Source: Bacteroidota bacterium (GTDB taxonomy: Bacteria > Bacteroidota > Bacteroidia > Flavobacteriales_F > PHOS-HE28). From it: DNA of 64,000 bases. The notes below the pieces were generated by a model. The model ran no database searches. It was not told where the DNA came from and worked only from the letters and a program-made list of their open reading frames with translations. Below, one piece after another: positions 3,244 through 49,775 of the stretch (positions are counted from its first letter, which is position 1; each line of letters opens with the position of its first letter). The stretch lies in NCBI GenBank assembly GCA_963169535.1, contig CAUJED010000118.1, positions 22,834 to 86,833 of the forward strand, given 5' to 3'. The translations under genes were made by a program, and so were the position numbers.

Positions 3244-3462
3244 GGTGGTGGTAGTTCCATCGAAGCTACGGCTTCCCGGAAATCGACGAAGCACAAATCG
3301 GGTTCGTCGACACATCACCCGTATCCGTCTGGAAACTTGCAGCAATTAACACCCGTAAGAGACCGTCGTGTACCGCATGCGTATAGTTTCACCGCCCCTT
3401 GGCCGTACCGCGAACTGGAACCTCGCACGATGGTACGGCAGGGGAAGAACCTGTAGGATCGA

Positions 3463-4113
3463 ATGATACAGATGCCCATGCTCGTGGCATTGCTCTTTAC
3501 CTGGCTCTGGCCAGGAAACGCGAGCGAAGCCACCGCCCCGACCGTGGAGGCAGCCCCTGCGCCGACCGCGGCCCATGGTGCCAATGCGCTGTTCGAGGCC
3601 TTGTGCCTCGATGGCGAATTGAAGGAGGACGTCTTCGCGGCGTGTTACGAGCGTATGGAACGCAAAGGCATCAGCAGCCGGGTGGTCGCCATCGCGGACA
3701 TGACGCAACCCAGTACCGCGAAGCGGCTGTATGTGATCGACCTGGAACGACAGGTGCTCGTGCTGCGCACGTACGTGGCGCACGGGCAGGGCAGCGGCGA
3801 ACTGATGGCCACGCATTTCAGCAACCGGGAGGGATCGCACCAGACCAGTTTGGGGCTTTACCGGGTGGGGGCGGAGATCGTGAGCCCGAAACACGGTGCA
3901 GCGCTGCTGCTGCATGGCTTGGAGCGTGGCACGAACTGCCAAGCCTTGAAACGGGAGGTGATCATGCACGGTGCCGATTACGTGAGCGAATCGTTCGTCA
4001 AGGAACACGGGCGCCTGGGCCGTAGCTGGGGGTGCCCGGCCGTGAGCCGTGCGGACATGCCCCGCATGCTCGAGTTGTTGGCCGAAGGCGCCCTGCTGTA
4101 CATCCACGGCTGA
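3463..4113 (+). CDS. L,D-transpeptidase catalytic-domain family protein
   Basis: 216 aa with a signal peptide. It has a YkuD-like core (HGQGSG...SLGLYRVG...HG...) with a conserved Cys-containing C-terminal half (GCPAV). Confidence 0.55.
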   Translation: MIQMPMLVALLFTWLWPGNASEATAPTVEAAPAPTAAHGANALFEALCLDGELKEDVFAACYERMERKGISSRVVAIADMTQPSTAKRLYVIDLERQVLVLRTYVAHGQGSGELMATHFSNREGSHQTSLGLYRVGAEIVSPKHGAALLLHGLERGTNCQALKREVIMHGADYVSESFVKEHGRLGRSWGCPAVSRADMPRMLELLAEGALLYIHG

Positions 4114-4157
4114 GCCCGAACTTTGGCGGTCGTTCCCGCGTATGCCGGGGCCTCACC

Positions 4158-5813
4158 ATGCGCCCGCTCTTCATTCTCCTGCTTCTGTTGCTCGCCCTGG
4201 GCTGCACCGCACCCGGATCGCCGAAAAGCCTGGCCGAACAAGGACTGGAGATCGCACAGGTCTTCGAGAGCGCGGAGCCGTACACCGCACGGACCATCGA
4301 CAGCACGGCCATCCTACGGTACTTGGAAGCGCACCCAGGATCCCGCGGCGACAGTGCGGCCATCTTCGCCTTCTACCAGCGACGCGGCTACCACTACGCC
4401 TGGTTCGTGGACGACAGCCTCTCCCATGCCGCACTCGGATTCGCTTCCCTGGTGCACCGTACCGACAAGGATTATCCAGCGGTGAAGGAACTGAGTGAAC
4501 GATTACTGCGCCTGATCGAGCAACCGACCTTGGCGGAACCGGGATGCGACAGTTGCGGACAGGACCTGGAACTGGCCCTCACGGCGGAATTCTTCCATTT
4601 CGCCAACAAGAAATACGGCGGTGCCGTGGGGCGCGACCTGCGCGAGCTGGATTGGTTCATACCCCGCACCAAGAAGAACTACGACCGGCTGATCGACTCC
4701 TTGGCCGCGGGCCACATGGACCTGAGCCTGATCGAGCCCCTGCACCCGCAGTACGCCCTGCTGAAGGAGCGCCTCCGCAAATACGTGGCCATGGACACCC
4801 TGGTGCGTTGGGAGGTGCTATCCTTGGGCGAACGCAAGAAACTCGAACCCGGCGACAGTGCCAGCGTGATCCCCGACATCCGGCAGCGCTTGATGATCCT
4901 GGGCGACCTGGTGAGCGGCATGGACACCATCGTACTCCATTCCATGCGGTACGACAGCACCCTACTGGAGGCGGTGATGCGGTTCCAGGAGCGCCACAAC
5001 CTGCTGGCCGACGGGGTGATCGGCAACAGCGTGATCCGTGCCTTGAACGTGACCCCCGCCCAGCGTGTGCGTACCATGTTGGTGAACATGGAGCGCCTGC
5101 GGTGGGTGCCCGAGTCCTACGCCCCGGACCTCATCCTGGTGAACATCCCGGAGTACAGGATGCATGTGTACGAAGGAGGGAAAGAAGCCTGGAGCATGAA
5201 CGTGGTGGTGGGCAACACGGCCACCCGCACGGTGATCTTCAGCGACACGCTCAGCACCATCGTCTTCAGCCCCACCTGGAACGTGCCCACCAGCATCGTA
5301 AGGGGCGAGATCCTGCCCGCCTTGAAGAAGGACCCCAACTACCTCGCGAAAAAAGGCATGGAGCGGATCGGGGGTACGGACGCCAACCCCGTGATCCGGC
5401 AGAAACCCGGTGCGGGGAACGCCTTGGGCAAGGTGAAATTCCTGTTCCCGAACAGCTACAGCATCTATTTCCACGACACCCCGAGCAAGGGGGCCTTCGC
5501 ACGGGAAAGCCGCGCTTTCAGCCATGGGTGCATCCGGTTGAGCGAACCCAAACGCCTGGCCGAATACCTGCTTCGGAACGACACCACGTGGACCACGGCG
5601 AAGATCGACGCCGCGATGAACAAGAAAAGCGAGACATGGGTGAAGTTGAAGGAGAAACGCCCGGTGACGATCGGGTATTTCACCGCCTGGGTGGGGACCG
5701 ATGGTCGCACGTACTTCTGCGACGATGTGTACGGGCACGATGCCAAGCTGGCGAACGAGCTCTTCTTCGACCCCACCCCCGCACCCGACCCGCTTCCCGT
5801 TATGGCGCTGTAG
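4158..5813 (+). CDS. L,D-transpeptidase family lipoprotein (YcbB-like, with PG-binding region)
   Basis: Lipoprotein signal (MRPLFILLLLLLALGC). The YkuD catalytic motif is present (FHDTPSKGAFARESRAFSHGCIRLSEP), and the domain order matches YcbB/LdtD-type enzymes. The tracked ORF starts at 4032; the internal Met at 4158 is preferred. Confidence 0.7.
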   Translation: MRPLFILLLLLLALGCTAPGSPKSLAEQGLEIAQVFESAEPYTARTIDSTAILRYLEAHPGSRGDSAAIFAFYQRRGYHYAWFVDDSLSHAALGFASLVHRTDKDYPAVKELSERLLRLIEQPTLAEPGCDSCGQDLELALTAEFFHFANKKYGGAVGRDLRELDWFIPRTKKNYDRLIDSLAAGHMDLSLIEPLHPQYALLKERLRKYVAMDTLVRWEVLSLGERKKLEPGDSASVIPDIRQRLMILGDLVSGMDTIVLHSMRYDSTLLEAVMRFQERHNLLADGVIGNSVIRALNVTPAQRVRTMLVNMERLRWVPESYAPDLILVNIPEYRMHVYEGGKEAWSMNVVVGNTATRTVIFSDTLSTIVFSPTWNVPTSIVRGEILPALKKDPNYLAKKGMERIGGTDANPVIRQKPGAGNALGKVKFLFPNSYSIYFHDTPSKGAFARESRAFSHGCIRLSEPKRLAEYLLRNDTTWTTAKIDAAMNKKSETWVKLKEKRPVTIGYFTAWVGTDGRTYFCDDVYGHDAKLANELFFDPTPAPDPLPVMAL

Positions 5814-7221
5814 CAGGAGGAGGCGCGGCGCTGACGAGCACACCGCTCGCACCGAGGTAGGCCGCGAAACTGCGGTTGGTCCAGTGCGTAGCGTCGGTAT
5901 CCAAGGGCAGCACCTTCAAACACCGGGGCAACTCCACCGTGGGCAGGATGACCACCTCCTTGCCGCGCACGGCGGCCTCGGCCACGGCGCGATAGCACTG
6001 CCGCATGTCCGCATCGTAACGTTTCATACGACCGCTCAGGAGGTCGGCCGTCACACGCCCATCACGTCCGGCCCATAGCGCACCGGTACACAGCAACACG
6101 AAGGCCCACCGCATTGCCGAAGCGTCCGCATGGGCCACCCACCGGCCGCGTGGTCGGAAATGGACCTGGTCCCAAACGGCCACGGCCCAGAACCACGAAG
6201 GGATGAAGAAGAACAAGGCCATGCCGATGGTGCGGTACTGACCTAATATGCCCGTTGGCCAATAGGTGACCACCATGCAGATGAACACCACGGCGAACGG
6301 CAGGGCGAGGGCCACCCATTTGTTCGATATCTTCACGAAGGGATCCACCAGCCCCAGCCTGATGCCCTTGCGTAACAGGGCGACGAACACCACGGTGGGC
6401 AGCACGAGCACCAGGACCCATTGCAGGGTGAAACGGCCGGTCTGTGCCACGCTGTATCCGATGGTGCGCACCAGGTCGTGCCGCAGGGGGAACAGCGCCC
6501 CCCGGGTGGCGTTGCCCGGGGCCACCACCACCACCAGCGTGCAGACCAGCGCAAGGAGCAGGAGCCACACCGCGGCCCTGCGCAGCGCCGGAGAGCCACC
6601 CCGCATCCAGTGCCACAAGCCCAGGTGCGCGAGCACCAGCATGGCGGCATGCACCTCGTTGCTCCCCACCACCATGGCCACGAGCAGGGCCTGTTGCGCA
6701 TACCACCAGCCATGCACCACTCCTGGTCGGCGCAGGGCATCGATCCAGCGTATGGCGATGAACACACACAGCACATTGGCCAATTGGTAGGTGACCGCTC
6801 CGGTGTACCAATAGAAGCCCTCGCTGGCATCGGGGATCAGGTGCAGGTAGAGCAGCAGCCAGGCGAGCGCCCCGGTCACGGACCAGTGCAAAGGCAGGCG
6901 CGGCGCGAGCACACGCAGGCATCGTTGGAAGGCCAGGGCGGTGAGCAGGATCAGCACCACGGCAGCCAGGCGATATAGCGGGAGCCCGCAATCCAAGCCG
7001 AGCACCAACGGACCACGCAACACCAGCACATTGGAGAAGTAGCGTCCGTTCCATGAGGTATACTCCTGCACCAAGCGTTCGCCCAAGGGAGTGGTCATGC
7101 CCACCACGGCGTAGCTCAGGTCATCCGCATAGGGGTGAATGAAGAAGGCGAGCGCCAGGTGGCGTGCCAGGGCGATCCAGAGGATGGCCTGGGCCATGCG
7201 GTACGGGAGGCTGGCCTTCAT
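5800..7221 (-). CDS. Polytopic inner-membrane protein, putative GT-C-type lipid-linked sugar transferase (partner of upstream GT2)
   Basis: About 473 aa with at least 10 hydrophobic helices and a C-terminal soluble tail. It lies immediately downstream of a Dpm1/ArnC-like GT2 on the same strand (26-bp gap). Confidence 0.45.
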   Translation of the reverse strand: MKASLPYRMAQAILWIALARHLALAFFIHPYADDLSYAVVGMTTPLGERLVQEYTSWNGRYFSNVLVLRGPLVLGLDCGLPLYRLAAVVLILLTALAFQRCLRVLAPRLPLHWSVTGALAWLLLYLHLIPDASEGFYWYTGAVTYQLANVLCVFIAIRWIDALRRPGVVHGWWYAQQALLVAMVVGSNEVHAAMLVLAHLGLWHWMRGGSPALRRAAVWLLLLALVCTLVVVVAPGNATRGALFPLRHDLVRTIGYSVAQTGRFTLQWVLVLVLPTVVFVALLRKGIRLGLVDPFVKISNKWVALALPFAVVFICMVVTYWPTGILGQYRTIGMALFFFIPSWFWAVAVWDQVHFRPRGRWVAHADASAMRWAFVLLCTGALWAGRDGRVTADLLSGRMKRYDADMRQCYRAVAEAAVRGKEVVILPTVELPRCLKVLPLDTDATHWTNRSFAAYLGASGVLVSAAPPPATAP

Positions 7222-7246
7222 CGGCCCAAAGATGAGCGGAGCACGC

Positions 7247-8203
7247 TCAAAGACCGATGCGCTCGCTGACGCGGTATCGGTTGCGGTCCTCGCCATTGCG
7301 GCTCACGAGGTCGGCCACGAAGCCGGCGGTGAAAAGCTGCACGCCGATCACCATGGCGGTGAGCGCCACGAAGAACAAGCCTGAGCTGGTGACCCGTGGT
7401 GCCGCCACATCCAGCACGAAGCTGTACCAGAGCTTCTCGCCGACCACCCACCCCGCGCACAGGAAGCCCACCACGAACATGATGGTGCCCAGACCGCCGA
7501 AGAAATGCATGGGTTTCTTTCCGAAACGGAAGATGAAGGTGATGGTGAGCAGATCGAGGAAGCCGTTGATGAAGCGGCTCAGGCCGAACTTGGTGTGGCC
7601 GAACCGGCGCGGATGGTGCTTCACCACCTTCTCGCCGATCTTGCGGAACCCCTCCTTCTTGGCGATGAAGGGGATGTAGCGATGCATCTCCCCGAACACC
7701 TCGATGTTCTTCACCACCGCTTTGCGGTAGGCCTTGAGCCCACAGTTGAAATCGTGCAGGTACACACCGCTCACCCGGCGGGTGGTCCAGTTGAAGAGCT
7801 TGGTGGGAATGGTCTTGGTAAGCGGATCGTACCGCTTCTTCTTCCAGCCGCTCACCAGGTCGAAGCCCTCCTCCCGGATCATGCGGTACAGCTCCGGGAT
7901 CTCGTCGGGATCATCCTGCAGATCGGCATCCATGGTGATCACCACCTCGCCCTGCGCGGCGATGAACCCCTCGTTGAGCGCGGGGCTCTTGCCGTAGTTG
8001 CGACCGAAGCGGATGCCCTTCACCCGAGCATCCTCGTGGGCCAGGCGCTGGATCTCCTCCCAGGAGCCGTCGGAACTTCCATCGTCGATCAGGATCACCT
8101 CATAGGCCTTACCCATACCGGAGAGCACCCGGTGCAGCCACGCCACCAAGGGGGGCAGCGATTCGCGCTCGTTCAACAGGGGAACGACGATGGAGATGTC
8201 CAT
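7247..8203 (-). CDS. Glycosyltransferase family 2, polyprenyl-phosphate sugar synthase (ArnC/GtrB/Dpm1-like)
   Basis: GT2 motifs are present (ISIVVPLLNE, EVILIDDGSSDGS, DADLQDDP), followed by two C-terminal TM helices as in ArnC/GtrB. The start is at MDISIVVPLL (ATG at 8201-8203). Confidence 0.75.
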   Translation of the reverse strand: MDISIVVPLLNERESLPPLVAWLHRVLSGMGKAYEVILIDDGSSDGSWEEIQRLAHEDARVKGIRFGRNYGKSPALNEGFIAAQGEVVITMDADLQDDPDEIPELYRMIREEGFDLVSGWKKKRYDPLTKTIPTKLFNWTTRRVSGVYLHDFNCGLKAYRKAVVKNIEVFGEMHRYIPFIAKKEGFRKIGEKVVKHHPRRFGHTKFGLSRFINGFLDLLTITFIFRFGKKPMHFFGGLGTIMFVVGFLCAGWVVGEKLWYSFVLDVAAPRVTSSGLFFVALTAMVIGVQLFTAGFVADLVSRNGEDRNRYRVSERIGL

Positions 8204-8553
8204 GGTGGTGCAAGGATAGTGCATGCGGGAACGCGGCCATGCGGCAGGGCAGGTCGGCCACCTCCTTGGTGGCGGTGGGCACCGGTGCCAAGGGCGCGAC
8301 CCCGAGCCAAGCCCCCCGCAGCGCTGAGCGGATACGTTGCAACGCGCGGTAGGCGACACGTGAAAGTACGGTCGACCCGTTCGGCACAAGCTCCTTCGAC
8401 CTATCTTTGTGCCTGGGGCAAGTCCTGTACGACCAGCTCCCGCCGAATCCCCCAGGGCCGGAAGGCAGCAAGGGTAGGCGGTTGAAGCGGTGCGATATGG
8501 GTCGCTTGCCCCTCTTTTTTTGCCTATACCGAAGGGTATCTACCTTTCCGGCC

Positions 8554-9363
8554 ATGGGCACTTCCACGAAAGTCATCCTGATCACGGGCGCATCCGGCGG
8601 CCTGGGTAAAGCCATCGGACTACGGCTGGCCAAGGCGGGCCACACGGTGTTCGGCACCAGCCGACAGCCGCAGGTAGGTCACGGCCATGGCGGGTTCCCC
8701 CTGTTGCCCATGGACGTTACCGACGATGGATCCGTGCATGCGGCGGTAGCAGAGGTGGTGAGAAGAGCCGGTCGGCTGGACGTGGTGATCAACAACGCCG
8801 GGCTGGGCATACAAGGCCCTGCGGAAGACATCACCCCGGAGTTGGCCAACCGGTTGATGGACACGAACGTGACCGGGGCGCATCGTGTTTGCCGAGCGGC
8901 GCTTCCACCGATGCGTACCCAGGGCGATGGACTCATCATCAACATCACCAGCGTGGCGGGCAACTTCGGACTTCCGTACCGCAGCTTCTACAGCGCCAGC
9001 AAAGCCGCCTTGGAGCGGTACACCGAAGCCTTGAGCACGGAGGTGGCCCGGTTCGGCATCAAGGTGCTCACGGTGCAACCGGGCGAGTTCAACACCAACA
9101 TCGCCAGTGCACGGCTGCGCCCCGAAGTGATCAGCGAGGCCCATCGACCGGGCTACGAGCGAGCCATGGCCATCCTGGGGGGAAGCATGCACTACAGCCG
9201 CGACCCCGATGAACTGGCGGTGGTGGTGGAGCGCATCATCGGTGCGAAACATCCGAAGACCACGTACATCGTAGCACAGGGGCTCCAACGGCTGAGCATC
9301 GTCCTGAAGAAGATACTTCCCGGCCGGATGTTCGAGCGCATGGTGCGTAAACACTACGAGTGA
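8554..9363 (+). CDS. SDR family oxidoreductase
   Basis: TGASGGLGKAIG Rossmann motif, NNAG, and the catalytic YSASK motif. Confidence 0.8.
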   Translation: MGTSTKVILITGASGGLGKAIGLRLAKAGHTVFGTSRQPQVGHGHGGFPLLPMDVTDDGSVHAAVAEVVRRAGRLDVVINNAGLGIQGPAEDITPELANRLMDTNVTGAHRVCRAALPPMRTQGDGLIINITSVAGNFGLPYRSFYSASKAALERYTEALSTEVARFGIKVLTVQPGEFNTNIASARLRPEVISEAHRPGYERAMAILGGSMHYSRDPDELAVVVERIIGAKHPKTTYIVAQGLQRLSIVLKKILPGRMFERMVRKHYE

Positions 9364-10247
9364 TCCCGATGGAAGCCTACGACCCGCACAACTGGCTCAA
9401 GGCCCTCCTGATACACCGGTCGGACACCTTCCGGAAGCTCTGGCCCTACCTGCTGCTCATCGGACTGTTCACCGCCGGGATACGCTACCTGGAAGTGGAG
9501 TACCTGCACCTGAGCGAGACGAGCGACCTGAGCAACCTGCCGGTGATGCACAGCCTGCTGGGTTTCGCGATCAGCATGCTCTTGGTGTTCCGCACCAACA
9601 CCGCATACGACCGGTGGTGGGAGGGCCGAAGGTTGTGGGGCCAACTGGTGAACGTGAGCCGGAACCTGGCGATCAAGGTGGGAGCGATCTTTCCGCCGGA
9701 GCAACAGGCCACCAGGCAGTTCTATGCCCGTTGTATCGGACTTTTCCCGAGTGAATTACAGCGGCACCTCCGTTCGGAACGCACCCGCTTGGCCCTGGAT
9801 GCGGCCCCCCACCCCGAGTTGGTCGGCCTGGACCGGAACAAACACGTGCCCGGGCAAGTGGTCTCTTTGATGCAACAACGGATCCAACGGCTCTATCACG
9901 AGAAGGCGATCACCGGCGACCAGTTGATCACATTGAACACGGAGCTGGTGCAATTCATGGACATCTGCGGAGCCTGCGAACGGATCAAGAACACCCCCAT
10001 CCCCTACTCGTACAGCAGCTTCCTCAAGAAGTTCATCGTGATCTACGCGTTCACCCTGCCATTCGGATTCGCGTTCTCATTGGGCTACCTGGCCATCCCC
10101 GTGGTCATCTTCATCTTCTATGTTCTGGCCAGCTTGGAGCTGATCGCCGAGGAGATCGAGGACCCCTTCGGTACGGACAGCAACGACCTGCCCATGGAAC
10201 GCTTGGCGGCCATGATCCAGCAGAGCGTGGACGACCTGCTGAATTGA
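9360..10247 (+). CDS. Bestrophin-family (UPF0187/YneE-like) anion channel
   Basis: 295 aa with a TM-helix pattern and conserved bestrophin-like segments (RWWEGRRLWGQLVN..., YSYSSFLKKF). 4-bp overlap with the upstream SDR gene. Confidence 0.6.
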   Translation: MIPMEAYDPHNWLKALLIHRSDTFRKLWPYLLLIGLFTAGIRYLEVEYLHLSETSDLSNLPVMHSLLGFAISMLLVFRTNTAYDRWWEGRRLWGQLVNVSRNLAIKVGAIFPPEQQATRQFYARCIGLFPSELQRHLRSERTRLALDAAPHPELVGLDRNKHVPGQVVSLMQQRIQRLYHEKAITGDQLITLNTELVQFMDICGACERIKNTPIPYSYSSFLKKFIVIYAFTLPFGFAFSLGYLAIPVVIFIFYVLASLELIAEEIEDPFGTDSNDLPMERLAAMIQQSVDDLLN

Positions 10248-15355: not shown

Positions 15356-17407
15356 ATGCCGGTGACCGAACTACGCACGGTGTTGGAGGAGATCGCAGCC
15401 TATGATGGGCAGGAGGTGGACCTGCTGGCTCGGCTGGTGCGTGCCATCAGGCCCACGAAGGACGAACAGGAGCGCGCGTTGGCGCCAGGGTTCGCCCGCC
15501 TGTTGGCGTTGTTGGAAACGGATGCAGCGCTTCGTGCGGGGCTCTCAGCATACGTGCATCGGTTGATCTCCTGGAAACGCCTGAACCGTGCCCTGGTGGA
15601 CCCCGGGATGGTGAGCGGCGACTTCTGGCACGAACTGCGCGAACGCCTCAACTACAAGCTGCTGCCCTTCCAACCCGATCCCGGCACCATAGATCATGTG
15701 CTGGTGAACGTGTTCTTCAAGGAACGCGATGGCGACTGGGTGCGGGCGTTGGACCAAGGCGAGTGCGTACGCCTGCTCTCGTTGCTGGACGGCCGCAGCC
15801 TGCACGACCTGCCGATGGGTTCCTTCACCATGAAGGAGCTGCTCTTCGCCATCAAGGTGATCGGCCTGCGGATCGCCGGGCGTGCGTTCGACAGCCGGGT
15901 GCTGCGCATGGTGCCCGAGCACGAGAACCTCGCCAACCCCTTCGTGCTGCTGGGCGACGAGCTGGACCGCTACATCGCCGGGCTGAATGATGGAACCGTG
16001 GCGCGCGGCACCGCCGACCCTGTTCGCCTCCGGATCGGTGAGCTGATGGACCAGTGCCACGCCATGATCGGCCAGGCCTACGACAATAGTGCGGTACATG
16101 GCATCGGGTTCCGGGTGAACCAGAACCTGATGGCGTTGCAACGCATGCTGGAGCGGCTGGAGCTGATCCTCGACGCCATCGTGGTGGACCCGCGTGTCGA
16201 TGGTCGTTCGTCGACCGTGGACCTGATCAAGAACATGGTGGCGTTCAACACGGGTCGCACGCACATCAAGGGCTTCATAGACCGAAGCACCCAGGTGGTG
16301 GCACGGGAGATCTCGGCCCACGCGGGGCGCACCGGTGAGCACTACATCACCACCACCGGGCGCGAATACCTGGCCATGTTGCGCTCGGCGTTGGGCGGAG
16401 GGGCCATCGTGGCCTTCGCGTGCATCCTGAAGACGTGGTACGGCACCTTCGACGTGAGTCTCTTCACACGGGCCTTCCTGTACAGCATGAACTATGCGAT
16501 GGCCTTCATCGCGATCTACCTGACCCACTGCACCCTGGCCACCAAGCAGCCCGCCATGACCGCCGCCACCATCGCTGCCACGCTGGACGATGGGCAGAGC
16601 GCACGCGGCGCCGAACGCTACAACGAACTGGCCGCGTTGCTGGCCCGTGTATGGCGTTCGCAGTTCATCGCTTTCGTGGGAAACGTATTCATGGCCTTCC
16701 CCGTGGCGGTGGGTATCGCCTACGGCTGGGATCACTTCTTCGACCCCGACATGCTGGCGAACAAGTACCCCAAGATGATCCATGAGCTGAACCCCTTACG
16801 CTCCCCGGCCATCCTGCACGCGTCCATCGCCGGGGTGTTCCTCTTCATCAGTGGCCTTATCGCCGGGAATGTGAGCAACAAGATCATCCATGGTCGGATA
16901 CCGTACCGGATCGAACATCATCCCGTGTTGAAGCTCACCATTTCGGCTGCGAAACGAGAACGGCTGGCCGCGTACTACCAACGGAACGCTGCAGGCATCA
17001 TCAGCAACTTCTGGTTCGGCTGCTTCCTGGGGTCCATCAGTATCGTGGGCGTTTTCTTCGGTTTGCCCCTGGACATCCGTCACATCACCTTCACTGCGGG
17101 GAACCTGGGCTTGGCCATGGTGGGTGGTGGCTGGCACTTCGATGCCTGGACCATCGCGATATCGGTGCTGGGCATCGGGCTCGTCGGGCTGTTCAACTTC
17201 ATGGTGAGCTTCGGACTATCGCTGACCTTGGCGCTGCGGTCCAGGGGCATCGCCTTCTCGGAACTGATCCCCATCGTACGGGCGGTGTTCACCCATTTCA
17301 AGGCGCGGCCATGGGTGTTCTTCTTCCCGATCGGGGATAATGGCGAGCCGATCCGCGAAGCCGTGGCCGAACCGGTAACGGGCCAAGCGGAGGATCCGGT
17401 GCGTTAG
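15356..17407 (+). CDS. Large membrane protein resembling the misnamed 'site-specific recombinase' (Gcr-like, PF10136-type) family
   Basis: 683 aa with a soluble N-terminal ~330 aa followed by about 8 TM helices. The overall architecture and length recall the Neisseria Gcr-like family. From memory only. Confidence 0.4.
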   Translation: MPVTELRTVLEEIAAYDGQEVDLLARLVRAIRPTKDEQERALAPGFARLLALLETDAALRAGLSAYVHRLISWKRLNRALVDPGMVSGDFWHELRERLNYKLLPFQPDPGTIDHVLVNVFFKERDGDWVRALDQGECVRLLSLLDGRSLHDLPMGSFTMKELLFAIKVIGLRIAGRAFDSRVLRMVPEHENLANPFVLLGDELDRYIAGLNDGTVARGTADPVRLRIGELMDQCHAMIGQAYDNSAVHGIGFRVNQNLMALQRMLERLELILDAIVVDPRVDGRSSTVDLIKNMVAFNTGRTHIKGFIDRSTQVVAREISAHAGRTGEHYITTTGREYLAMLRSALGGGAIVAFACILKTWYGTFDVSLFTRAFLYSMNYAMAFIAIYLTHCTLATKQPAMTAATIAATLDDGQSARGAERYNELAALLARVWRSQFIAFVGNVFMAFPVAVGIAYGWDHFFDPDMLANKYPKMIHELNPLRSPAILHASIAGVFLFISGLIAGNVSNKIIHGRIPYRIEHHPVLKLTISAAKRERLAAYYQRNAAGIISNFWFGCFLGSISIVGVFFGLPLDIRHITFTAGNLGLAMVGGGWHFDAWTIAISVLGIGLVGLFNFMVSFGLSLTLALRSRGIAFSELIPIVRAVFTHFKARPWVFFFPIGDNGEPIREAVAEPVTGQAEDPVR

Positions 17408-17732: not shown

Positions 17733-19424
17733 TCAGAACTGGAAATAGATGAAGGGCACCATCCCTGCCGTGACGGTTTGGTACACCACGAAAACCACGG
17801 CCACGCATGCCAGCGCCATGGCCCAGAGCGGCAGTGCGGCGAACTTGGCGCGGTACCATTCCTTCGTGCGGGTGGGTAGCCAGTGCACCACGAAGCCGAG
17901 CAGCATCAGGGCGAACACACTGCGGAAGCCCCAGAGCACGTCGCCCGCCAGATGCCAACTGAAGGCATTGCCGATCCGGGAGAGCATGAGGTTGACCTGC
18001 TCCAAGGACGAGCCCCGGAACCAGAACCGGGTGAAGGTGATGAACGCGAAGGTGATCGCGATGGCCTGGAACCGCGCGAACCAGTGCGTGCTCTTGTTCC
18101 ACGGGCTGATGCGCGCCCAGCCCTTGTAGATCAGCAGGCCGATGCCATTGAGGCCGCCCCAGATCACGAACATCCAGCTGGCGCCGTGCCACAGCCCGCC
18201 GATCAGCATGGTGAGCATGAGGTTGATGTTGGTGGTGATCATGTTACGGAACGGTGGCCAGAAGTAGGCGGTGAGCCACATCGCGGCGCCGATGATCAGG
18301 AACACGAACGGCAGCATAAGGTTGCCGGTGAGCAGCACGAGCACGGCGAGCACCACGCCCGTCATGATCCACGAGAACAAGGAGCCGCCCCGGTTGCCGC
18401 CCATGGGGATGTAGAGGTAGTCGCGGAGCCAGGTGCTGAGGCTGATGTGCCAGCGTTTCCAGAACTCGCCCGTGCTGCGCGCCTTGTAGGGGCTATCGAA
18501 GTTGGCGGGCAGGGTGTAGCCCAGCAGCAGTGCGAGGCCGATGGCGATGTCGGTATAGCCGCTGAAATCGGCGTACACCTGCAAGGAGTAGCCCACGGCG
18601 GCCATGAGGTTCTCGAAGCCCGTGAAGCGCATGGGATCGGCGAACACCCGATCGATGAAGTTCACCGCGATGTAGTCGCCGATCAGCATCTTCTTCAGCA
18701 GGCCGTTGAGGATCCAGAACACGGCCATGCCGAACTGCGTGCGGGTAAGGCTGAACGGCTGCTCCATCTGCGGCAGGAACACCGATGCGCGGATGATCGG
18801 CCCCGCCACCAGTGCGGGGAAGAAGCTGACGTAGAAGGCGAAGTCGAGGATGGTGCGCACGGGCTTCACGTGGCCGCGGAACACATCCACCTGATAGCTG
18901 ATGCAATGGAAGGTGTAGAAGCTGATGCCCACCGGCAGCAGCACCTTGTTCTCGATGAAGTGCGCATCCCACGCGGCGTTGGCGATGCGGGCGAAGTAGT
19001 TCACCGCCTCGAACGAGGTGCCGAAGGTGGCGTTGATCGTATCCACCACGAAGTGCGCGTACTTGAAGTAGCACAGAAGCAACAGGTTCACCGTGATGCT
19101 GAGGGCCAGCAGCAGTTTCTTCCGCAGTTGGTCCGGTGTCGCAGCGCTCGCCCGCGCGATGAAATGGTCCATCACGATGCTGAAGGAGAGCAGCCCCACG
19201 AAGATGCCGCTGGTCTTCCAGTAGAAGAAGAGGCTGGCGAGCGTGAGCCAGCCGATGCGCAGGGGATGGCTCTTGTACACGAGGCCGAGCACGGCAAGCA
19301 CCACTGCGAAGAAGCCCCAGAAGAAGAAGCGGGTGAAGATGAGCGGCGAGGCCGGGTCGTAGTCGAACAGGCCTGCCCAGTCGAAGGTGCCGATGGCGGA
19401 GAGGAGCGAGAGGGCGGTGCTCAT
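17733..19424 (-). CDS. MBOAT family membrane-bound O-acyltransferase (AlgI/PatA/DltB-like)
   Basis: 563 aa, polytopic, with a conserved His-containing MBOAT core ([24 protein letters not shown]). 4-bp overlap with the upstream SGNH gene. Confidence 0.8.
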   Translation of the reverse strand: [563 protein letters not shown]

Positions 19425-20725
19425 CGTTCAGTTGCAGAGGACCTCACGTGCGCTCCATAGGCTTCCATCATCGCGGCGAAGAGCAGATCACCCAGGGCCA
19501 CATAGCCTGTTCGGGTCAGATGCACCAGATCCTTCTTCGCCAAGCCGGCCCGCTCCCAGGCCAGGATGGAATGCATGCCCCCCATGACACCGAAGGTGTC
19601 CCACACGGCACAACCATGCTTGGTGGCCAGGCGCAACATCACCTCGCGCACGGCGGCCCCGTTCTTGTTGGGGTACTTGCGCTTCACGTAACTGTCGGTG
19701 TTGGTGGTGAGCAGGATGGCCGCATGGGGCGCGGCTTCTTTGACCCGTGCGATCAGCTGTTCGTAGTTGCGCTCGTAGCGATCGGCGCTGAAATCGGGGT
19801 CGTGGGCATCGTTGATGCCGATGGAGAAGACCACCAGATCGGGCTTGATCACGGCGAGCTCGCGCACGAACCTTTGACAACGCAGCCAACTGGTGGTGCT
19901 GGCGCCATTGACCCCGTGGGCATGATAGAAGAAGCCCGGGTCGTCGCTTTCGAGGTCGATCCCGTACAGGGTGAACCGTCGCTGGTCCGATGCGGTCTTC
20001 TGGAACCGCAGGTACAAGGTGTCCATGTACCGGTCGTACTGGAACTCGGTGTGGCCCCGGGCAGGGTCGACGTTGGTCTCGATGTGCACCTTGGGGTCGT
20101 GGCTGTAGGCGACCACGGTGTAGGCGCTGTCCATGCCGTGGAAGACCTTCACCCGATTGAACTGGTAGCCGGCGTACACCTCGCCACGGAAGCTCACCTT
20201 CAGGGTAGTGAGCGTGTCGGTGGTGGTCACGGAATAGCCGCTGATCCCGAGCGCTGCGGTATCGGCGCGGGTCACGTTCTTCACGCTCGTCCACCGGCCG
20301 GTGTATTCCGGCAGGTACCAGTAGGGATTGTTGGTCTTGGCCATGTTGTAGGGGAAGATGGATCCCCGCCCCCCCTTCACGCCGGGCACCACGTTCTGCA
20401 ACCGGCTCCTCAGCTCCATGCTCCACATGTCCGCTTGCACGTGCGACCCCCCGAAATGCGCGATGTGCACCTGGCCTTGGCCCTCAAGGAGGAGCTCGTC
20501 CAGTTTGGCGTGGTAACGATCCCAGGCTGCATGCCCACCGGGGAACTGGAGTCCGTTGGATGCGGGATGCACCATGTTCAGCGCAGGAAGCCGCACGGGG
20601 TTCTCCTGAGCACGTGCGGGGGTGAGGATCACGGACATGCCCACCCACACCACCACGCTCCAGGCCGACCGATGTTTCCACCGGCCCAGGATGCTTCGTT
20701 GACCCTCACTGCTGTGCTTGACCAT
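19421..20725 (-). CDS. SGNH/GDSL hydrolase family protein (secreted)
   Basis: Signal peptide and GDSL block I (IAHFGGSHVQ). An SGNH-like C-terminal half contains DxxH (VFSIGINDAHDP). It overlaps the upstream paralogue by 20 nt. Confidence 0.65.
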   Translation of the reverse strand: MVKHSSEGQRSILGRWKHRSAWSVVVWVGMSVILTPARAQENPVRLPALNMVHPASNGLQFPGGHAAWDRYHAKLDELLLEGQGQVHIAHFGGSHVQADMWSMELRSRLQNVVPGVKGGRGSIFPYNMAKTNNPYWYLPEYTGRWTSVKNVTRADTAALGISGYSVTTTDTLTTLKVSFRGEVYAGYQFNRVKVFHGMDSAYTVVAYSHDPKVHIETNVDPARGHTEFQYDRYMDTLYLRFQKTASDQRRFTLYGIDLESDDPGFFYHAHGVNGASTTSWLRCQRFVRELAVIKPDLVVFSIGINDAHDPDFSADRYERNYEQLIARVKEAAPHAAILLTTNTDSYVKRKYPNKNGAAVREVMLRLATKHGCAVWDTFGVMGGMHSILAWERAGLAKKDLVHLTRTGYVALGDLLFAAMMEAYGAHVRSSATER

Positions 20726-22202
20726 GGTATTCCGCGAAATCGTTGATCAATGCGGAGAAGAAGAGTTCGCCCACCTTCTTGGCCCCCTGCGGGTTGAAGT
20801 GGGTGTAGTCCGTGGCGGCCAGCGGCGGTTGGGCCTCCACCCAGCTCACCATGCTGTTGCGCCCGCCCATGGCCTCGTACATGTCCCAGAACACGGCACC
20901 TTGCGCCAGGGTGTTGGTCTTCATGGCATCGCGCACATCCTCCAAGAAAGGCCGGGTGACATACTGCTCGCCCTCCTTCTCGCTCATATCGCTCGGGCCG
21001 ATAACGATCACGGCCACGCCGGGGATCATCCGTTTGAACCGGGCGATCTGTGCACCGAAGAACCGACCGTATTGCGCGGCCTCCTCGGCGCTCTTGAGGT
21101 TGGGGACCACATTGCCGCCGTATTGGAGGATGAGGAGTTCCACATCCAGATCGCTGAACATGGTGCTGAGCAACGCTTGGTCGGCCTTGCGGAACTCGTA
21201 GCCCGCCGCCCCTCGCGCCGCGATATTGTCCACGCACACTCCACTATGGCCTTCCAGGGAGACCCCATACACATCGGGGCTATCGGTCCCTTTGAAGGTG
21301 AGGGTGATCTCGTCCGGGGTGGAGGCGAACCGCCACTCGCGGATCAGCAGCCGGTCCGAGGGCGGCACCACTTCCGTGCTGATAAGCTCCGTACCCTGGC
21401 GCAGTTCAATGGTCAACGGGGTGCGATGCCAGCCGTAGTAGAGCCGCACCTCATCGAACTGTTGGGCCTTGCCATAGGCCCTGCGCAGCGGCCGCAAGGT
21501 CACGGTGGCCTCGTGCACGGTGCTATCCATGGGCACGGTGTCCGGCAAGATGGGGGTGAAGCGCGAGAAGGCGGAAAGCGCTCCGTACCGATCGTGGTGT
21601 TGGGTGGGATCCTTGCGCCCCATTGCGCTGTAGCGGACCCAATTCGCGCTGATCACCCGATCGATACTGAAGCTGGGCACGATGTCGGCCACCGCCACCA
21701 GGCCGGGACCGGTACCTCCGAACTGCGTTTGCAGCTTGTTGCGCAGGTAGGAGGTGATCCGATCACCTTCCAGTTGCGAATCGCCGTAGTGCATGATGCG
21801 CAGCGGGTGGCGGCCCGAGCGTGCCGTCCGCAACTTGGCGAACACGGGCCAGAGCACCTTCTTATCGCCATCGGGGTAGTGCAGCGCGATACGCTCCTCC
21901 AAGGGGCGCAGCTTGGTGGTATCGAAAACGAAAGGCTCCTCCACCAGCGTGGTGTCCACCGCGAGGGGATCCACCACGAGGTCCTCCTCGGGCACGGCGG
22001 CCGCCGAGTCGGTGACCACCGCGAGGATGTCGCTGATATCGACCTTCTCCTCGGGGGTGGGGAACAACAGCTCTCCGGGGTCGGGCATGTGCAACACCAC
22101 GACATCGCCGACCGGCATGCCCGCGCGGGGGAACAGCGCACCGATCAACGCCAGACCCGACAACACGGCCAGGAGGAAGATGAGCACATGCACTGGTCTC
22201 AT
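20706..22202 (-). CDS. SGNH/GDSL hydrolase family protein (secreted), paralogue of 19421-20725
   Basis: Signal peptide (MRPVHVLIFLLAVLSGLALIG), GDSQLEGD block I, and a C-terminal catalytic region. 4-bp overlap with the upstream mltD-like gene. Confidence 0.65.
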   Translation of the reverse strand: MRPVHVLIFLLAVLSGLALIGALFPRAGMPVGDVVVLHMPDPGELLFPTPEEKVDISDILAVVTDSAAAVPEEDLVVDPLAVDTTLVEEPFVFDTTKLRPLEERIALHYPDGDKKVLWPVFAKLRTARSGRHPLRIMHYGDSQLEGDRITSYLRNKLQTQFGGTGPGLVAVADIVPSFSIDRVISANWVRYSAMGRKDPTQHHDRYGALSAFSRFTPILPDTVPMDSTVHEATVTLRPLRRAYGKAQQFDEVRLYYGWHRTPLTIELRQGTELISTEVVPPSDRLLIREWRFASTPDEITLTFKGTDSPDVYGVSLEGHSGVCVDNIAARGAAGYEFRKADQALLSTMFSDLDVELLILQYGGNVVPNLKSAEEAAQYGRFFGAQIARFKRMIPGVAVIVIGPSDMSEKEGEQYVTRPFLEDVRDAMKTNTLAQGAVFWDMYEAMGGRNSMVSWVEAQPPLAATDYTHFNPQGAKKVGELFFSALINDFAEYHGQAQQ

Positions 22203-23671
22203 GGGCGGGGTATCCTCAGTTCCTGACCAGGTTTGATCACCGTGCCGATATCATTCAGCTCCATCAGATGCAGGGCGGTGAGCCCGGGAAACCGACGGGC
22301 GATGCCATACAGGGAGTCACCGTGGCGCACCGTGTAGGAAACGAACCGGGTCACGGGTGGGCCGTTCGCCCCCCCTGGATGATCGTTCATCGGGGCCAGC
22401 GGCAAAGGGGTGTTGGAACCCTCGCCATCGGGCAGCTGAGGTTCCGGTTCGGAGGGCTTCACCAACTCGCGCTTCTTCACTTTGATCACCAAGGTGCGGC
22501 CGGCGTTGATCCGGTCGCTGCGCAGGTTGTTCCACGCCTTCAGCTGTTTCACCGATACGCGGTGCTTCGCGGCGATACTTCCCAGGTTGTCACCACGGCG
22601 CACGGTATACCTTATGCTCTTCTCCACCACCACGCTCACCAACTGCTCCTCTGTGGCAGCCAAGGCCTGGCTTCGGGCCCGCTCCAATGCCGCTTCGGCC
22701 ACCGCCATGGAATCGCGCATGGAAACGTAGCACGCCGTGGTGGTACGGGGTAGGAGGAAGGTCGCCCCTTCCGGGACATGTCCACTGCAATAGACGGGGT
22801 TCAGGGCTTGCAGGCGGGCCACGGGCAGTTGCATCACGTGCGCCACGGCAGCCAGGTCGATGGCCCTGCCGCTCACCAGGGTATCCGCAGCTTCACGGGG
22901 TGCGATGGTGATGGGTTCCAAGCCCAACTCGCCACTGCGGGCGTAGAGGTGGATGAAGGCCATGAGCAGGGGCAGCACCTCTTGTTCCCCATCGGTGAAG
23001 TGGGGATACAGCGTACGGAGATCGGTGGCGCCACCGGTGCGCAACTGGGCCCGGGTGACATTGGCCGGTCCACATGCGAACGCCATGATGGCGAGGCCCC
23101 AGTCCTGATAGCGATCGCGCAGATCCTTGAGGTAGCGCACGGCCGCCTTGGTGCTGAGGACATCATCATGCCGCTCGTCCACCAGGGCGTTCACGGTGAG
23201 GCCATAGCGCAGGGCCACGGGGTAGGTCAGCATCCACAGGCCCCCACGCCCGTTGGCCGAGGCCGCCTGGCTGTTCAGCGCTGACAAGGCCATCGGCAAA
23301 TGCACCAGATCGGTCGGGAGCCCCTGGACGGCCAACTCCTCCGCGAACATGGGGTAGTACACCCGGCTCAACCCGAGGAGCACACGGAACTGTTCCCGCA
23401 ATGGCTCCCCGTAGAGATCGGCATAGAGCACCACATTGCTGTCGGCGAACACCGGCATGGTGGAGACCTCCTTCTTCAGGTCCTCGTAGAGATGCTCGGT
23501 ATCGACCGCGCGCACCACACCCCGCCCCAAGGTGGGCCCCAGCTCGGCCAAGCGCTGTTCCACGGCCCAGGTGCCCATCAGGCTATCGGTACGCCAGGTG
23601 ACCTGCGCCTGCGCGACGACCGACACCATCGCCACCACCGGTCCGAGGCAGATATGTGCGATCCGCGGCAT
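22199..23671 (-). CDS. mltD: Membrane-bound lytic murein transglycosylase D-like (SLT domain plus LysM repeats)
   Basis: An SLT catalytic region (LPTDLVHLPMALSALNSQAASANGRGGLWMLTYPVAL) is followed by three LysM-like repeats (YTVRRGDNLGSIAAKHRVSVKQLKAWN; YTVRHGDSLYGIARRFPGLT...). Confidence 0.75.
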   Translation of the reverse strand: MPRIAHICLGPVVAMVSVVAQAQVTWRTDSLMGTWAVEQRLAELGPTLGRGVVRAVDTEHLYEDLKKEVSTMPVFADSNVVLYADLYGEPLREQFRVLLGLSRVYYPMFAEELAVQGLPTDLVHLPMALSALNSQAASANGRGGLWMLTYPVALRYGLTVNALVDERHDDVLSTKAAVRYLKDLRDRYQDWGLAIMAFACGPANVTRAQLRTGGATDLRTLYPHFTDGEQEVLPLLMAFIHLYARSGELGLEPITIAPREAADTLVSGRAIDLAAVAHVMQLPVARLQALNPVYCSGHVPEGATFLLPRTTTACYVSMRDSMAVAEAALERARSQALAATEEQLVSVVVEKSIRYTVRRGDNLGSIAAKHRVSVKQLKAWNNLRSDRINAGRTLVIKVKKRELVKPSEPEPQLPDGEGSNTPLPLAPMNDHPGGANGPPVTRFVSYTVRHGDSLYGIARRFPGLTALHLMELNDIGTVIKPGQELRIPRP

Positions 23672-23891
23672 GGGTGCGTAAAGCAAGTGGCTGTGTGCGA
23701 AGGAGGTGGCTCGCACAACCGGTAATTGTACACGCGGACTTGTTCAGTTGGCCGAACTTCGCGTCGTGAACATCAACGGACTGCGCCAAGGGCTGTGGGC
23801 TCTCCTGTTCTCCGGCATCACCTGGGTATGCGGTGCCCAGACCCTGCAGCCGCTCCCTGGTCCCCCTTCCACCCCACCATCAACGAACACC

Positions 23892-26454: not shown

Positions 26455-26580
26455 CCCCGCTCCCGCGGATCTGCGATCCATGGTCTCTTCCTCATCCCCG
26501 CTCCCGCGGATCTGCGATCCGTGGTCTCCAGTCATTCCCCGCTACCGCGGATCTGCGATCCGTGGCCTCCAGTCATTCAT
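26455..26580. repeat. Three tandem ~41-bp REP-like direct repeats, each containing the palindrome GGATCTGCGATCC
   Basis: Copies start at 26455, 26496 and 26537. The consensus is CCCCGCTCCCGCGGATCTGCGATCCGTGGTCTCCAGTCATT. Inverted copies occur at 27174-27249. Confidence 0.8.
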
Positions 26581-27154
26581 CGTCATCTACGTTATCGCCA
26601 TGATCTGTGATCACCTCACCCCGGATCGTCTCCAATTTCAGCATCCCTGGTAGACCTGCTTCATCGCGCGCGCTGGAGTACAGGTAATGATGTGGCTCTT
26701 CCACCAAGCCTTCCTCCACCGGGTTGCGGTGAATGTAACGCAGCTTCTGTTGGATGATATCTGCACGTCGTAACCAGATCGGATGCAGGTCATGCTGCCA
26801 CACTTGGTTGCCACCATCCGCCCGCTTGAACTGATCCCTCAACCATTCGCGACGGCTCTCCTGCGGGTTCTCTTCCACCGCTTTAAGCAGTGCTTTCGAG
26901 GTGAATTTCTTGTGGTCGCTCATGATGTCCTGCAGCCGATATCCTGCTTTCGCACGGGCGATCAAGTGAACGTGGTTGGTCATGATGCACCACGCGAAAA
27001 GTTCAAGACCGTTCTCGCGTTGGCAATGACGCAAACTCTCTACGATGATGTCCTTATAGTCGGGCCGTGTCAATACATCCACCCAGCCGACCGTGGCATA
27101 GGTCAGGTAGTGCAGGTCCGTTTGGTCGTAGATCTTGTAGTTGCGGCTCACCAA
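26573..27154 (-). CDS. REP-associated tyrosine transposase (RAYT, IS200/IS605-like HuH-Y1 family)
   Basis: HuH motif (MTNHVHLIARA) and a catalytic-Tyr motif (YIHRNPV). About 193 aa. It is flanked on both sides by REP-like repeats. Confidence 0.7.
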   Translation of the reverse strand: MVSRNYKIYDQTDLHYLTYATVGWVDVLTRPDYKDIIVESLRHCQRENGLELFAWCIMTNHVHLIARAKAGYRLQDIMSDHKKFTSKALLKAVEENPQESRREWLRDQFKRADGGNQVWQHDLHPIWLRRADIIQQKLRYIHRNPVEEGLVEEPHHYLYSSARDEAGLPGMLKLETIRGEVITDHGDNVDDDE

Positions 27155-49729: not shown

Positions 49730-49775
49730 CCACACCCTGCCCCGGGAACAACAAAGCCCCTTGCGGGGCTTTGGG

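Follow-up and report, generated by a model that had tools for sequence, protein, structure and literature searches.

A 64,000-nt stretch of contig CAUJED010000118.1 (the window), from the metagenome-assembled genome (MAG) of an uncultured Flavobacteriales bacterium, carries on its minus strand four overlapping genes that encode an MltD-like protein with SLT and LysM domains, two SGNH proteins of 498 and 434 aa, and an MBOAT protein. The operon is very probably a module of peptidoglycan O-acetyl metabolism, in which both SGNH proteins belong with the esterase Ape1 and neither with the transferase PatB. We propose that the 498-aa protein, anchored in the membrane, is the O-acetyltransferase that serves the MBOAT, that the soluble 434-aa protein is the esterase, and that the MltD-like protein, in which the catalytic Glu is replaced, binds peptidoglycan without cleaving it. 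We put the probability at roughly 0.6, both for the assignment of the two SGNH roles and for the mechanism as a whole.

The four genes and their overlaps, all read at the level of single bases, are as originally predicted:

22199-23671, minus strand: MltD-like gene (SLT and two LysM domains), 490 aa from the ATG at 23671
22199-23716, minus strand: longest open reading frame (ORF) of the MltD-like gene, 505 aa from the GTG at 23716
20706-22202, minus strand: gene of the 498-aa membrane-anchored SGNH protein ('Ape1b' position), the proposed O-acetyltransferase partner of the MBOAT
19421-20725, minus strand: gene of the 434-aa secreted SGNH protein ('Ape1c' position), the proposed O-acetyl-peptidoglycan esterase
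17733-19424, minus strand: MBOAT gene, 563 aa, proposed to take the role of PatA
22199-22202, minus strand: ATGA overlap of the MltD-like stop codon and the 498-aa start codon
20706-20725, minus strand: 20-nt overlap of the end of the 498-aa gene (CAG CAG TGA) and the start of the 434-aa gene (ATG GTC AAG)
19421-19424, minus strand: ATGA overlap of the 434-aa stop codon and the MBOAT start codon

The ATG at 23671 is most likely the start of the MltD-like gene, in preference to the GTG, because its 490-aa product is identical to the recorded protein TXI78006.1, whereas the GTG-start version was not found in the protein collection searched. Pfam upheld the predicted domain identities, with matches to SLT (1.4e-12) and two LysM repeats (1.4e-28) in the MltD-like protein, to Lipase_GDSL_2 (1.3e-19) in the 434-aa protein, and to PF03062 (3.6e-22) in the MBOAT. 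The Lipase_GDSL_2 match of the 498-aa protein (6e-6) lies under the Pfam cut-off; its SGNH identity was confirmed by profile and fold. The nearest NCBIfam model to the MltD-like protein is MltD (9.3e-38, under that model's cut-off). Public records name such proteins 'hypothetical protein', 'lysophospholipase L1-like esterase', 'MBOAT family protein', 'AlgI' or 'DltB', and 'LysM peptidoglycan-binding domain-containing protein'.

Both SGNH proteins belong to the Ape1 family

Comparison of the two SGNH proteins with PatB, Ape1, AlgX, and AlgJ by hidden Markov models (HMMs) and by structure, a check suggested with the original prediction, places both with Ape1. In a single-sequence search of all PDB chains, each matched N. 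meningitidis Ape1 best (4k3u and related entries; E-values 1.7e-17 and 4.1e-12 for the two proteins), with C. jejuni Ape1 (8gld, 8gkd) also among the best matches; the Ape1 proteins of these two species are nearly their sole sequence relatives in the PDB. Family profiles gave E-values of 4.1e-29 (N. meningitidis) and 3.9e-21 (C. jejuni) for the 434-aa family and of 3.6e-19 and 1.6e-7 for the 498-aa family, and PatB chains were absent from the PDB searches with both profiles at E<=10.

The folds lead to the same family. AlphaFold2 (AF2) models of the two proteins are confident, with predicted local distance difference test scores (pLDDT) of 87.6 (434-aa) and 84.6 (498-aa), and both contain a beta-rich module between block I and block II, which is a hallmark of Ape1; in the 434-aa protein this insert comprises about 150 aa between S94 and G274. 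Foldseek searches of the PDB returned Ape1 structures first, at 1.4e-23 and a target-normalised TM-score (TMt) of up to 0.84 for the 434-aa model and at 8.9e-21 and TMt 0.78-0.80 for the 498-aa model. The alignments of both full-length models to 4k3u, 8gld, and 8gkd span 377-401 columns at TMt 0.75-0.84. The runner-up matches are CE2-type carbohydrate esterases (1e-5 to 1e-8), weaker by 13 to 17 orders of magnitude, and PatB, AlgX, AlgJ, and DltD do not appear in the top 50 of either model. Clustering with unrelated lipases or carbohydrate esterases, named beforehand as an outcome that would speak against the module, is not what we observe. The two proteins are also full-length paralogs of each other (hhalign probability 99.1, 354 columns, 24% identity).

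Alignment to the reference residues of N. meningitidis Ape1 (S80, G236, N268, D366, and H369) locates the catalytic set:

21774-21785, minus strand: block I G-D-S-Q of the 498-aa protein, with the nucleophile Ser142
21210-21212, minus strand: G331 of the 498-aa protein
21111-21113, minus strand: N364 of the 498-aa protein
20799-20801, minus strand: H468 of the 498-aa protein, which pairs with D465
20441-20452, minus strand: block I G-G-S-H of the 434-aa protein, with the nucleophile Ser94
19904-19906, minus strand: G274 of the 434-aa protein
19811-19813, minus strand: N305 of the 434-aa protein
19520-19522, minus strand: H402 of the 434-aa protein, which pairs with D399

The SGNH set is thus complete in both proteins (block I Ser, block II Gly, block III Asn, and block V Asp-x-x-His), and the catalytic residues are invariant in 81 orthologs of the 498-aa protein and 67 of the 434-aa protein, at 35-76% identity. 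The 434-aa protein keeps the Ape1 signatures G-x-S-H, G-(I/V)-N-G-A, and G-(T/I)-N-(D/E)-A; at the same blocks the 498-aa family has G-D-S-Q, A-R-G-A-A-G-Y-E, and G-G-N-V. Because Ape1 homology, the Ape1 fold, and invariant catalytic residues are found in both, both are predicted to be active enzymes of the Ape1 type. The composition first envisaged for the operon, PatA with PatB and an Ape esterase, has to be revised accordingly: neither SGNH protein is PatB-like, and the two paralogs share the Ape1 fold and keep the canonical Gly of block II, which is invariant in the two families and shows no replacement by Ser or Asn as in PatB.

Candidate partners of the MBOAT

Three features of the MBOAT protein bear on its mechanism:

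18447-18449, minus strand: conserved His326
18186-18188, minus strand: conserved His413
17736-17753, minus strand: C-terminal hexapeptide F-I-Y-F-Q-F, in agreement with the acyl-Tyr shuttle motif FxYxxF

Both His residues are invariant in 55 MBOAT orthologs, and the tail reads F-I-Y-F-x-F at 50 of 52 related loci. In PatA the Tyr of the tail is auto-acetylated from acetyl-CoA and acts as the donor to PatB (PMC12148441). Since AlgI, WssH, and PatA1 have the FxYxxF motif in common (PMC12148441), it gives the class of mechanism, with transfer of an acyl group from an MBOAT to an SGNH protein as its partner, and not the substrate. At one related locus (L023:8491-10680) the MBOAT ORF measures 729 aa, about 170 aa more than usual, and the extra C-terminal part has no Pfam match.

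The two candidate partners begin differently. The 498-aa protein starts with a helix:

22134-22196, minus strand: N-terminal transmembrane (TM) helix of the 498-aa protein, residues 3-23 (AF2 helix, pLDDT about 88)

This 21-residue hydrophobic helix lacks a signal-peptidase site and is followed by an FPxxG(I/V) motif that is conserved throughout the phylum; P3, F9, L17, G21, P25, and G28 are invariant, and AF2 places a disordered linker at residues 68-92. The N-terminus of the 434-aa protein is poorly conserved, as is typical of a cleaved signal peptide, and has a Gln after the cleavage site, in keeping with the 'Q-rule' of Bacteroidetes, by which Gln follows the signal-peptide cleavage site. 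The 434-aa protein is predicted to be secreted and soluble in the periplasm, and by its sequence it is nearer to Ape1 than the 498-aa protein. Only the 498-aa protein matches the layout of PatB, a TM helix with a disordered linker, an analogy of topology and not a homology. In PatB the TM helix lies packed on two helices of PatA, the first and the last. DltD and AlgJ, direct MBOAT partners in their own systems, are likewise membrane-anchored.

Published marks of SGNH transferases are an exchange of Gly in block II for Ser or Asn and a hydrophobic wall (PMC12148441). Used as criteria for telling transferase from esterase, they leave the roles unassignable, as neither paralog fits the PatB pattern. 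We therefore judged the roles by topology and by co-occurrence with the MBOAT.

Co-occurrence was read from two scans, whose loci carry L numbers. The first, seeded on the 498-aa family with one genome per species, gave at least 598 loci, and we examined the best 80. All of these are labelled Bacteroidota except two probable binning errors, and they represent Flavobacteriales, Bacteroidales, Marinilabiliales, Chitinophagaceae, Saprospiraceae, and Cyclobacteriaceae; one comes from a cultured organism, Maribellus luteus XSD2 (L063), and four that share the cluster (L012, L014, L019, and L026) are labelled Bacteroides or Bacteroidaceae MAGs. The two exceptions, L027 (labelled Luminiphilus sp.) and L056 (labelled Thiohalospira sp.), show a Bacteroidota-type cluster under Gammaproteobacteria MAG labels, probably through binning contamination; horizontal transfer is possible. 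Among the best 80, a gene of the lytic transglycosylase (LT) type lies directly upstream of the 498-type gene on the same strand at 51 of 74 evaluable loci, the 434-type gene lies directly downstream at 59 of 70, and the MBOAT comes next at 55 of 66. The full order LT-498-434-MBOAT is present at 35 of the 61 loci that could be evaluated throughout. The arrangement of the four genes is therefore non-random, its order recurring in many Bacteroidota lineages.

Two loci carry insertions. L001, the closest genome relative of the window, has the same four-gene order, split between the 498-type and 434-type genes by an IS256-family (Mutator-type) transposase (L001:8843-10144; PF00872, 3.6e-100). At L047:4810-6962, a DNA methylase (PF01555) and a 378-aa ORF stand between the LT and 498-type genes, which resembles a restriction-modification insertion.

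Because the 498-aa seed biases the context counts of the first scan, the second was seeded on an MBOAT consensus and run on metagenome contigs, with neighbours typed by family HMMs. It gave 27 evaluable loci, apart from 6 that were too short. The MBOAT is accompanied by both SGNH types at 18 of these, by the 498 type without the 434 type at 8, and by neither at 1. The 498 type is thus present at 26 of 27 loci, and the 434 type with the MBOAT but without the 498 type at none. Two loci of the genome scan (L023 and L046) also have the 498 type and the MBOAT without the 434 type. A system for acetylation can do without an esterase, whereas a transferase is indispensable to it; the constant partner of the MBOAT, the 498-aa protein, is therefore the better candidate for the transferase.

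The converse assignment, in which the 434-aa protein encoded beside the MBOAT gene is the transferase and the anchored 498-aa protein encoded beside the LT-like gene is an esterase that works with the LT-like protein, has arguments of its own. The genes are adjacent in just this way, LT with 498 and 434 with MBOAT, with an ATGA overlap at each junction, and in Neisseria it is the esterase that is paired with an LT, whereas here the 498-aa gene overlaps the LT gene. The 498-aa protein lacks the transferase marks: its Gly331 is invariant, and a polar Thr precedes its catalytic His. A weak signal of the PatB family (DUF459) sits in the 434-aa family (45 of 46 members) and in none of 46 members of the 498-aa family; the 434-aa protein itself scores 17.3 bits against a cut-off of 27.2, and the 498-aa protein has no such match. 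At 9 of 61 loci the 498 type occurs without a nearby MBOAT, 5 times alone and 4 times with the LT gene only, which fits an MBOAT-independent role such as that of an esterase. In the 2005 survey, Ape1a/1b pair with Ape2 (PatB) or with Ape1c, so that Ape1c would be the PatB equivalent by analogy (PMC1199599). The 434-aa protein has an inserted segment that Ape1c reportedly lacks, and its equivalence to Ape1c is positional only. All these points weigh against the assignment we prefer.

They are countered by three others. The 498 type occurs with the MBOAT but without the 434 type at ten loci of the two scans, and the converse never occurs, although an MBOAT needs a transferase. The 434-aa protein is soluble, has a variable signal peptide, and is closer to proven esterases. 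The DUF459 matches sit under much stronger GDSL_2 matches, and we judged them to be a cross-match within the clan and rejected them as a sign of PatB identity. We consider the reversal of roles unlikely, and retain the 498-aa protein as the probable transferase and the 434-aa protein as the probable esterase.

A third division of labour would be a relay as in AlgI, AlgJ, and AlgX, in which the MBOAT passes acetyl to the anchored 498-aa protein, the soluble 434-aa protein receives it from there and acetylates the polymer, and there is no dedicated esterase. The topology of the pair resembles that of AlgJ (anchored) and AlgX (soluble, with a carbohydrate-binding module), and both proteins keep the full catalytic set. 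On the other hand, neither has an AlgX or AlgJ match by sequence or fold, the 434 gene is missing from about a third of the clusters, the closest relatives of the 434-aa protein are proven esterases, and PatB alone is enough for peptidoglycan in Neisseria (PMC12148441). A relay of this kind is highly improbable.

Three loci on low-GC, Bacteroidota-like contigs (L122, L124, and L125) have an alternative type of cluster, made up of a compact, TM-anchored SGNH-like protein, the MBOAT, and a soluble 434-like protein. The compact proteins (L122:356-1270, L124:3210-3989, and L125:5121-5972; 259-304 aa) have an N-terminal TM helix and the motifs LLIGDSE, GLNE, and DGRHP and lack the beta-sandwich insert. 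They gave no Pfam match, and their profile comparison with the 498 family and the PDB was not significant. This compact anchored family may be another transferase partner for this class of MBOAT; here again the soluble Ape1-like protein is in the accessory role. Directly upstream of the cluster in L125 lies a gene for a 150-aa protein with a GH73 glucosaminidase domain (L125:4668-5120; PF01832, 2.9e-20); with it, this MBOAT family has a linked peptidoglycan hydrolase of a second kind.

An MltD-like protein without the catalytic Glu

The features of the MltD-like protein are the following:

23033-23317, minus strand: SLT domain, residues 134-228 in the numbering from the GTG (Pfam)
23285-23287, minus strand: codon of Leu144 (Leu129 from the ATG), which aligns with Glu125 of E. 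coli MltD
23069-23083, minus strand: A-F-A-C-G, at the place where family 1 lytic transglycosylases have the substrate-binding motif A-Y-N-x-G, of which it is a degenerate version
22481-22609, minus strand: LysM repeat 1 (Pfam)
22208-22339, minus strand: LysM repeat 2 (Pfam)

The signal peptide ends in AQA|Q and is of the signal peptidase I type, not that of a lipoprotein. BLASTP aligns the protein with E. coli K-12 MltD at 29% identity over 391 columns that span the SLT domain and both LysM repeats. In this alignment AYNSG of E. coli MltD stands opposite AFACG, and GLWQ is changed to GLWM; against the closest solved relative (PDB 8rhe), M-A-L-S-A-L-N-S of the window protein stands opposite V-I-E-S-A-Y-N-P. 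MltD variants E125A and E125K are reported to be catalytically inactive (bioRxiv 10.1101/2023.05.04.539382). The original prediction saw in the operon a self-contained unit that acetylates, de-acetylates, and cleaves peptidoglycan. As the catalytic Glu is replaced by Leu and the AYNxG motif has degenerated, the cleavage step finds no support in the window, and the MltD-like protein is likely to be devoid of lytic transglycosylase activity.

The replacement is not peculiar to the window. Among 57 cluster-linked LT homologs, 33 lack the Glu, having L, I, V, C, M, K, or S at this position, and their AYNxG motif is degenerate; the other 24 keep E-S, GxWQ, and AYNCG and form one slowly evolving clade, mostly Bacteroidales. 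Mean conservation of the SLT domain is 0.82 in the Glu-keeping group and 0.51 in the Glu-less group. Maribellus luteus XSD2 (L063), with the same four genes as the window, has a Glu-less LT, while the ortholog at L012 contains the Glu. An exhaustive search with the SLT domain alone covered 1.84 billion cluster representatives; of the 150 nearest, 37 lack the Glu, including all 11 closest, and its loss coincides with loss of the Asn of AYNxG. The signal peptide, the fold, and the LysM repeats are retained. Since the closest relatives lack the Glu and the Asn jointly, the Glu-less group is a real, long-lived subfamily, neither an error nor a pseudogene.

Could the MltD-like protein still cleave glycan strands by means of another acidic residue, as the full acetylate, de-acetylate, and cleave model would have it? 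The overall MltD architecture is preserved, and 24 of the 57 linked homologs, many of them in Bacteroidales clusters, keep E-S and AYNCG, so the ancestral cluster probably had an active LT. The Glu loss, moreover, is a reading of the alignment, which weighs against calling the protein inactive. However, no acidic residue is specifically conserved across the 33 Glu-less homologs (position 246 is D/E in just 61%), constraint on the SLT domain is relaxed, the window has three changes (Glu to Leu, GLWQ to GLWM, and AYNxG to AFACG), and substitution of E125 is reported to inactivate MltD. Activity through a substitute residue has a very slim chance; the complete unit may fit the Bacteroidales version of the cluster but not this window. 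The more likely and most economical reading of the MltD-like protein is a peptidoglycan-binding or regulatory protein that does not cut.

Glu-less MltD-like genes also occur apart from the complete cluster. Two Vicingaceae MAGs (L040, about 3316-7668, and L048, about 5448-9800) have an MltD-like gene with Cys in place of Glu and a 498-type gene, with mnmE directly after them, and no MBOAT or 434-type gene within reach; the pair either is MBOAT-independent or has partners elsewhere in the genome.

Under the mechanism that we favour, the operon would be the form that the peptidoglycan O-acetylation (OAP) cluster takes in Bacteroidota, expressed as one translationally coupled transcript. The MBOAT would load acetyl from cytoplasmic acetyl-CoA onto the Tyr of its periplasmic FIYFQF tail, as PatA does. 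The 498-aa protein, held at the inner membrane by its helix and flexible linker, would accept the acetyl group on Ser142 and pass it to the C6 hydroxyl of N-acetylmuramic acid, doing the job of PatB with an Ape1 fold and a canonical oxyanion-hole Gly. The soluble periplasmic 434-aa protein would strip O-acetyl groups off again. The MltD-like protein, with its SLT groove and two LysM repeats and with Leu as its general-acid Glu, would bind peptidoglycan without cleaving it and would probably position or stimulate both SGNH enzymes, as LtgA does Ape1 in Neisseria. A wider proposal, that Bacteroidota O-acetylate without PatB by means of a tethered Ape1 paralog, recruited with its SGNH active site entirely canonical to take acetyl from the Tyr tail of the MBOAT, and that the MltD homolog is in many lineages a catalytically dead, peptidoglycan-binding subunit that targets or regulates the pair of SGNH enzymes, like the LytM factors, is offered tentatively.

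Substrate, surroundings, and known systems

Peptidoglycan as the substrate, a part of the original prediction that stands, is indicated by the Ape1 fold and profile of both SGNH proteins and by the linked SLT/LysM gene. The other option named there, acetylation of an exopolysaccharide as in the alginate system, fares poorly: a match to an AlgX- or AlgJ-type SGNH domain was found for neither protein in Pfam, the PDB, or the fold search, and the flanks hold no genes for polysaccharide synthesis or export. More broadly, the substrate might be some other envelope glycan, such as an exopolysaccharide, a capsule, or an O-glycan, and public annotations do label the MBOAT AlgI or DltB. The Ape1-type fold, however, is matched specifically, inserted module included; the linked genes encode LysM/SLT proteins and, at the L125 locus, a GH73 glucosaminidase; genes for glycosyltransferases or export are absent from the flanks of the cluster, which differ between genomes. 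Bacteroides that have this type of cluster also have O-acetylated peptidoglycan, at 27% and 69% in the two species (PMC1199599). Another glycan is thus quite improbable as the substrate, and we keep to peptidoglycan.

The flanks of the operon are unrelated to it: they encode a tetratricopeptide repeat (TPR) membrane protein, a PF10136 protein, a divergent DsbA-like protein, DUF2071, an arginase-family protein, an IS200-like protein, and dipeptidyl peptidase IV (DPP IV). A scan for sigma-70 promoters found none, and as its model does not cover Bacteroidota promoters, this is silent on transcription. Terminator-like matches all lie within coding sequence and are near chance (6 found, 3.1 expected), and an Rfam search gave no RNA element in the operon or adjoining it. 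Other features of the window are:

8409-8515, plus strand: Bacteroidales small signal recognition particle (SRP) RNA (Rfam RF04183, 102 bits), which agrees with a Bacteroidota origin
15356-17407, plus strand: 683-aa protein with an end-to-end match to PF10136 ('site-specific recombinase', 3.4e-174); its sequence resembles that of a multi-pass membrane protein, which means that the name of the family may mislead, and a homolog also lies near the cluster in L004
23706-24527, plus strand: DsbA-like gene of the thioredoxin fold, divergent from the operon, with a likely start near 23893; this neighbour is retained in the closest relatives only (L001, L002, and L004)
26573-27154, minus strand: 193-aa IS200-like Y1 transposase-family protein (PF01797, 7.9e-9), which may be of the repetitive extragenic palindrome (REP)-associated tyrosine transposase type
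46429-46518, minus strand: tRNA-Ser(CGA)
49772-49850, minus strand: tRNA-His(GTG)

Peptidoglycan O-acetylation governs lysozyme resistance and autolysin activity, and PatA, PatB, and Ape1 are studied as drug targets. Bacteroidota comprise major gut commensals, oral pathogens, and abundant environmental bacteria, and their peptidoglycan can be heavily O-acetylated (27-69% in Bacteroides); the literature that we could search identifies no enzyme that performs the acetyl transfer in this phylum. If the anchored Ape1 paralog is the transferase, the current sequence rules that separate SGNH transferases from esterases are incomplete, and the rule of 'Gly to Ser/Asn plus hydrophobic wall' is not general. 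In hundreds of genomes, labels like 'lysophospholipase L1-like esterase', 'AlgI', and 'hypothetical protein' could then be corrected. With a Glu-less MltD family, lytic transglycosylases would join the hydrolase families that have yielded non-catalytic regulators.

The kind of system is already known, because the gene order is that of the ape1b-ape1c-pat cluster described in 2005 in B. thetaiotaomicron, B. fragilis, and P. gingivalis (Weadge, Pfeffer and Clarke, PMC1199599). Beyond this survey, the searchable literature, which leaves out most subscription journals, holds no characterised PatB or Ape of Bacteroidota and no Glu-less MltD. The window operon shares with the 2005 cluster the order of two Ape1-family SGNH genes followed by an MBOAT gene, the phylum, and the Ape1 motifs. 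The 2005 description was bioinformatic and took both SGNH proteins for esterases (PMC1199599). Ape1c was described as lacking a segment of roughly 100 aa after motif I, whereas the 434-aa protein has the insert, so the two are equated by position only. No linked LT gene was reported for the 2005 cluster, which has a cation-efflux gene upstream where the window has the MltD-like gene.

The characterised PatA-PatB-Ape1 systems of Neisseria and Campylobacter likewise combine an MBOAT that has a catalytic His and an FxYxxF tail with one anchored and one soluble SGNH protein, and their Ape1-fold esterase has a carbohydrate-binding module between blocks I and II, as in the window. The window operon departs from this paradigm twice, with a tethered Ape1-fold paralog in the position of PatB and a Glu-less MltD homolog among its genes. 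It has no homolog of PatB (DUF459), its anchored protein being a paralog of Ape1 that retains the canonical Gly in block II; relative to the window, the paradigm has its genes in reverse order, and the MltD-like gene lies within the window operon.

A precedent for coupling an LT-fold protein to an Ape1-type enzyme is LtgA of N. meningitidis, which associates with Ape1 in a complex and enhances the activity of this esterase on p-nitrophenyl acetate (pNP-acetate), no substrate of an LT, so that stimulation is independent of glycan cleavage (PMC7083599). LtgA is active, of the Slt70 type, and encoded elsewhere in the genome, whereas the proposed partner in the window is of the MltD type, co-operonic, and without the catalytic Glu. 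E. coli MltD has the same order of an SLT domain and two LysM repeats, with E125 and AYNSG where the window protein has Leu and AFACG. The LytM factors EnvC, NlpD, and DipM combine a degenerate hydrolase domain with LysM or other peptidoglycan-binding modules and control cell-wall enzymes; they have the LytM fold and the window protein the SLT fold, and the comparison is one of analogy only. The AlgI-AlgJ-AlgF-AlgX system, finally, also joins an MBOAT to one anchored and one soluble SGNH-like protein, but the window operon shows no homology to AlgX or AlgJ and has neither AlgF nor alginate genes.

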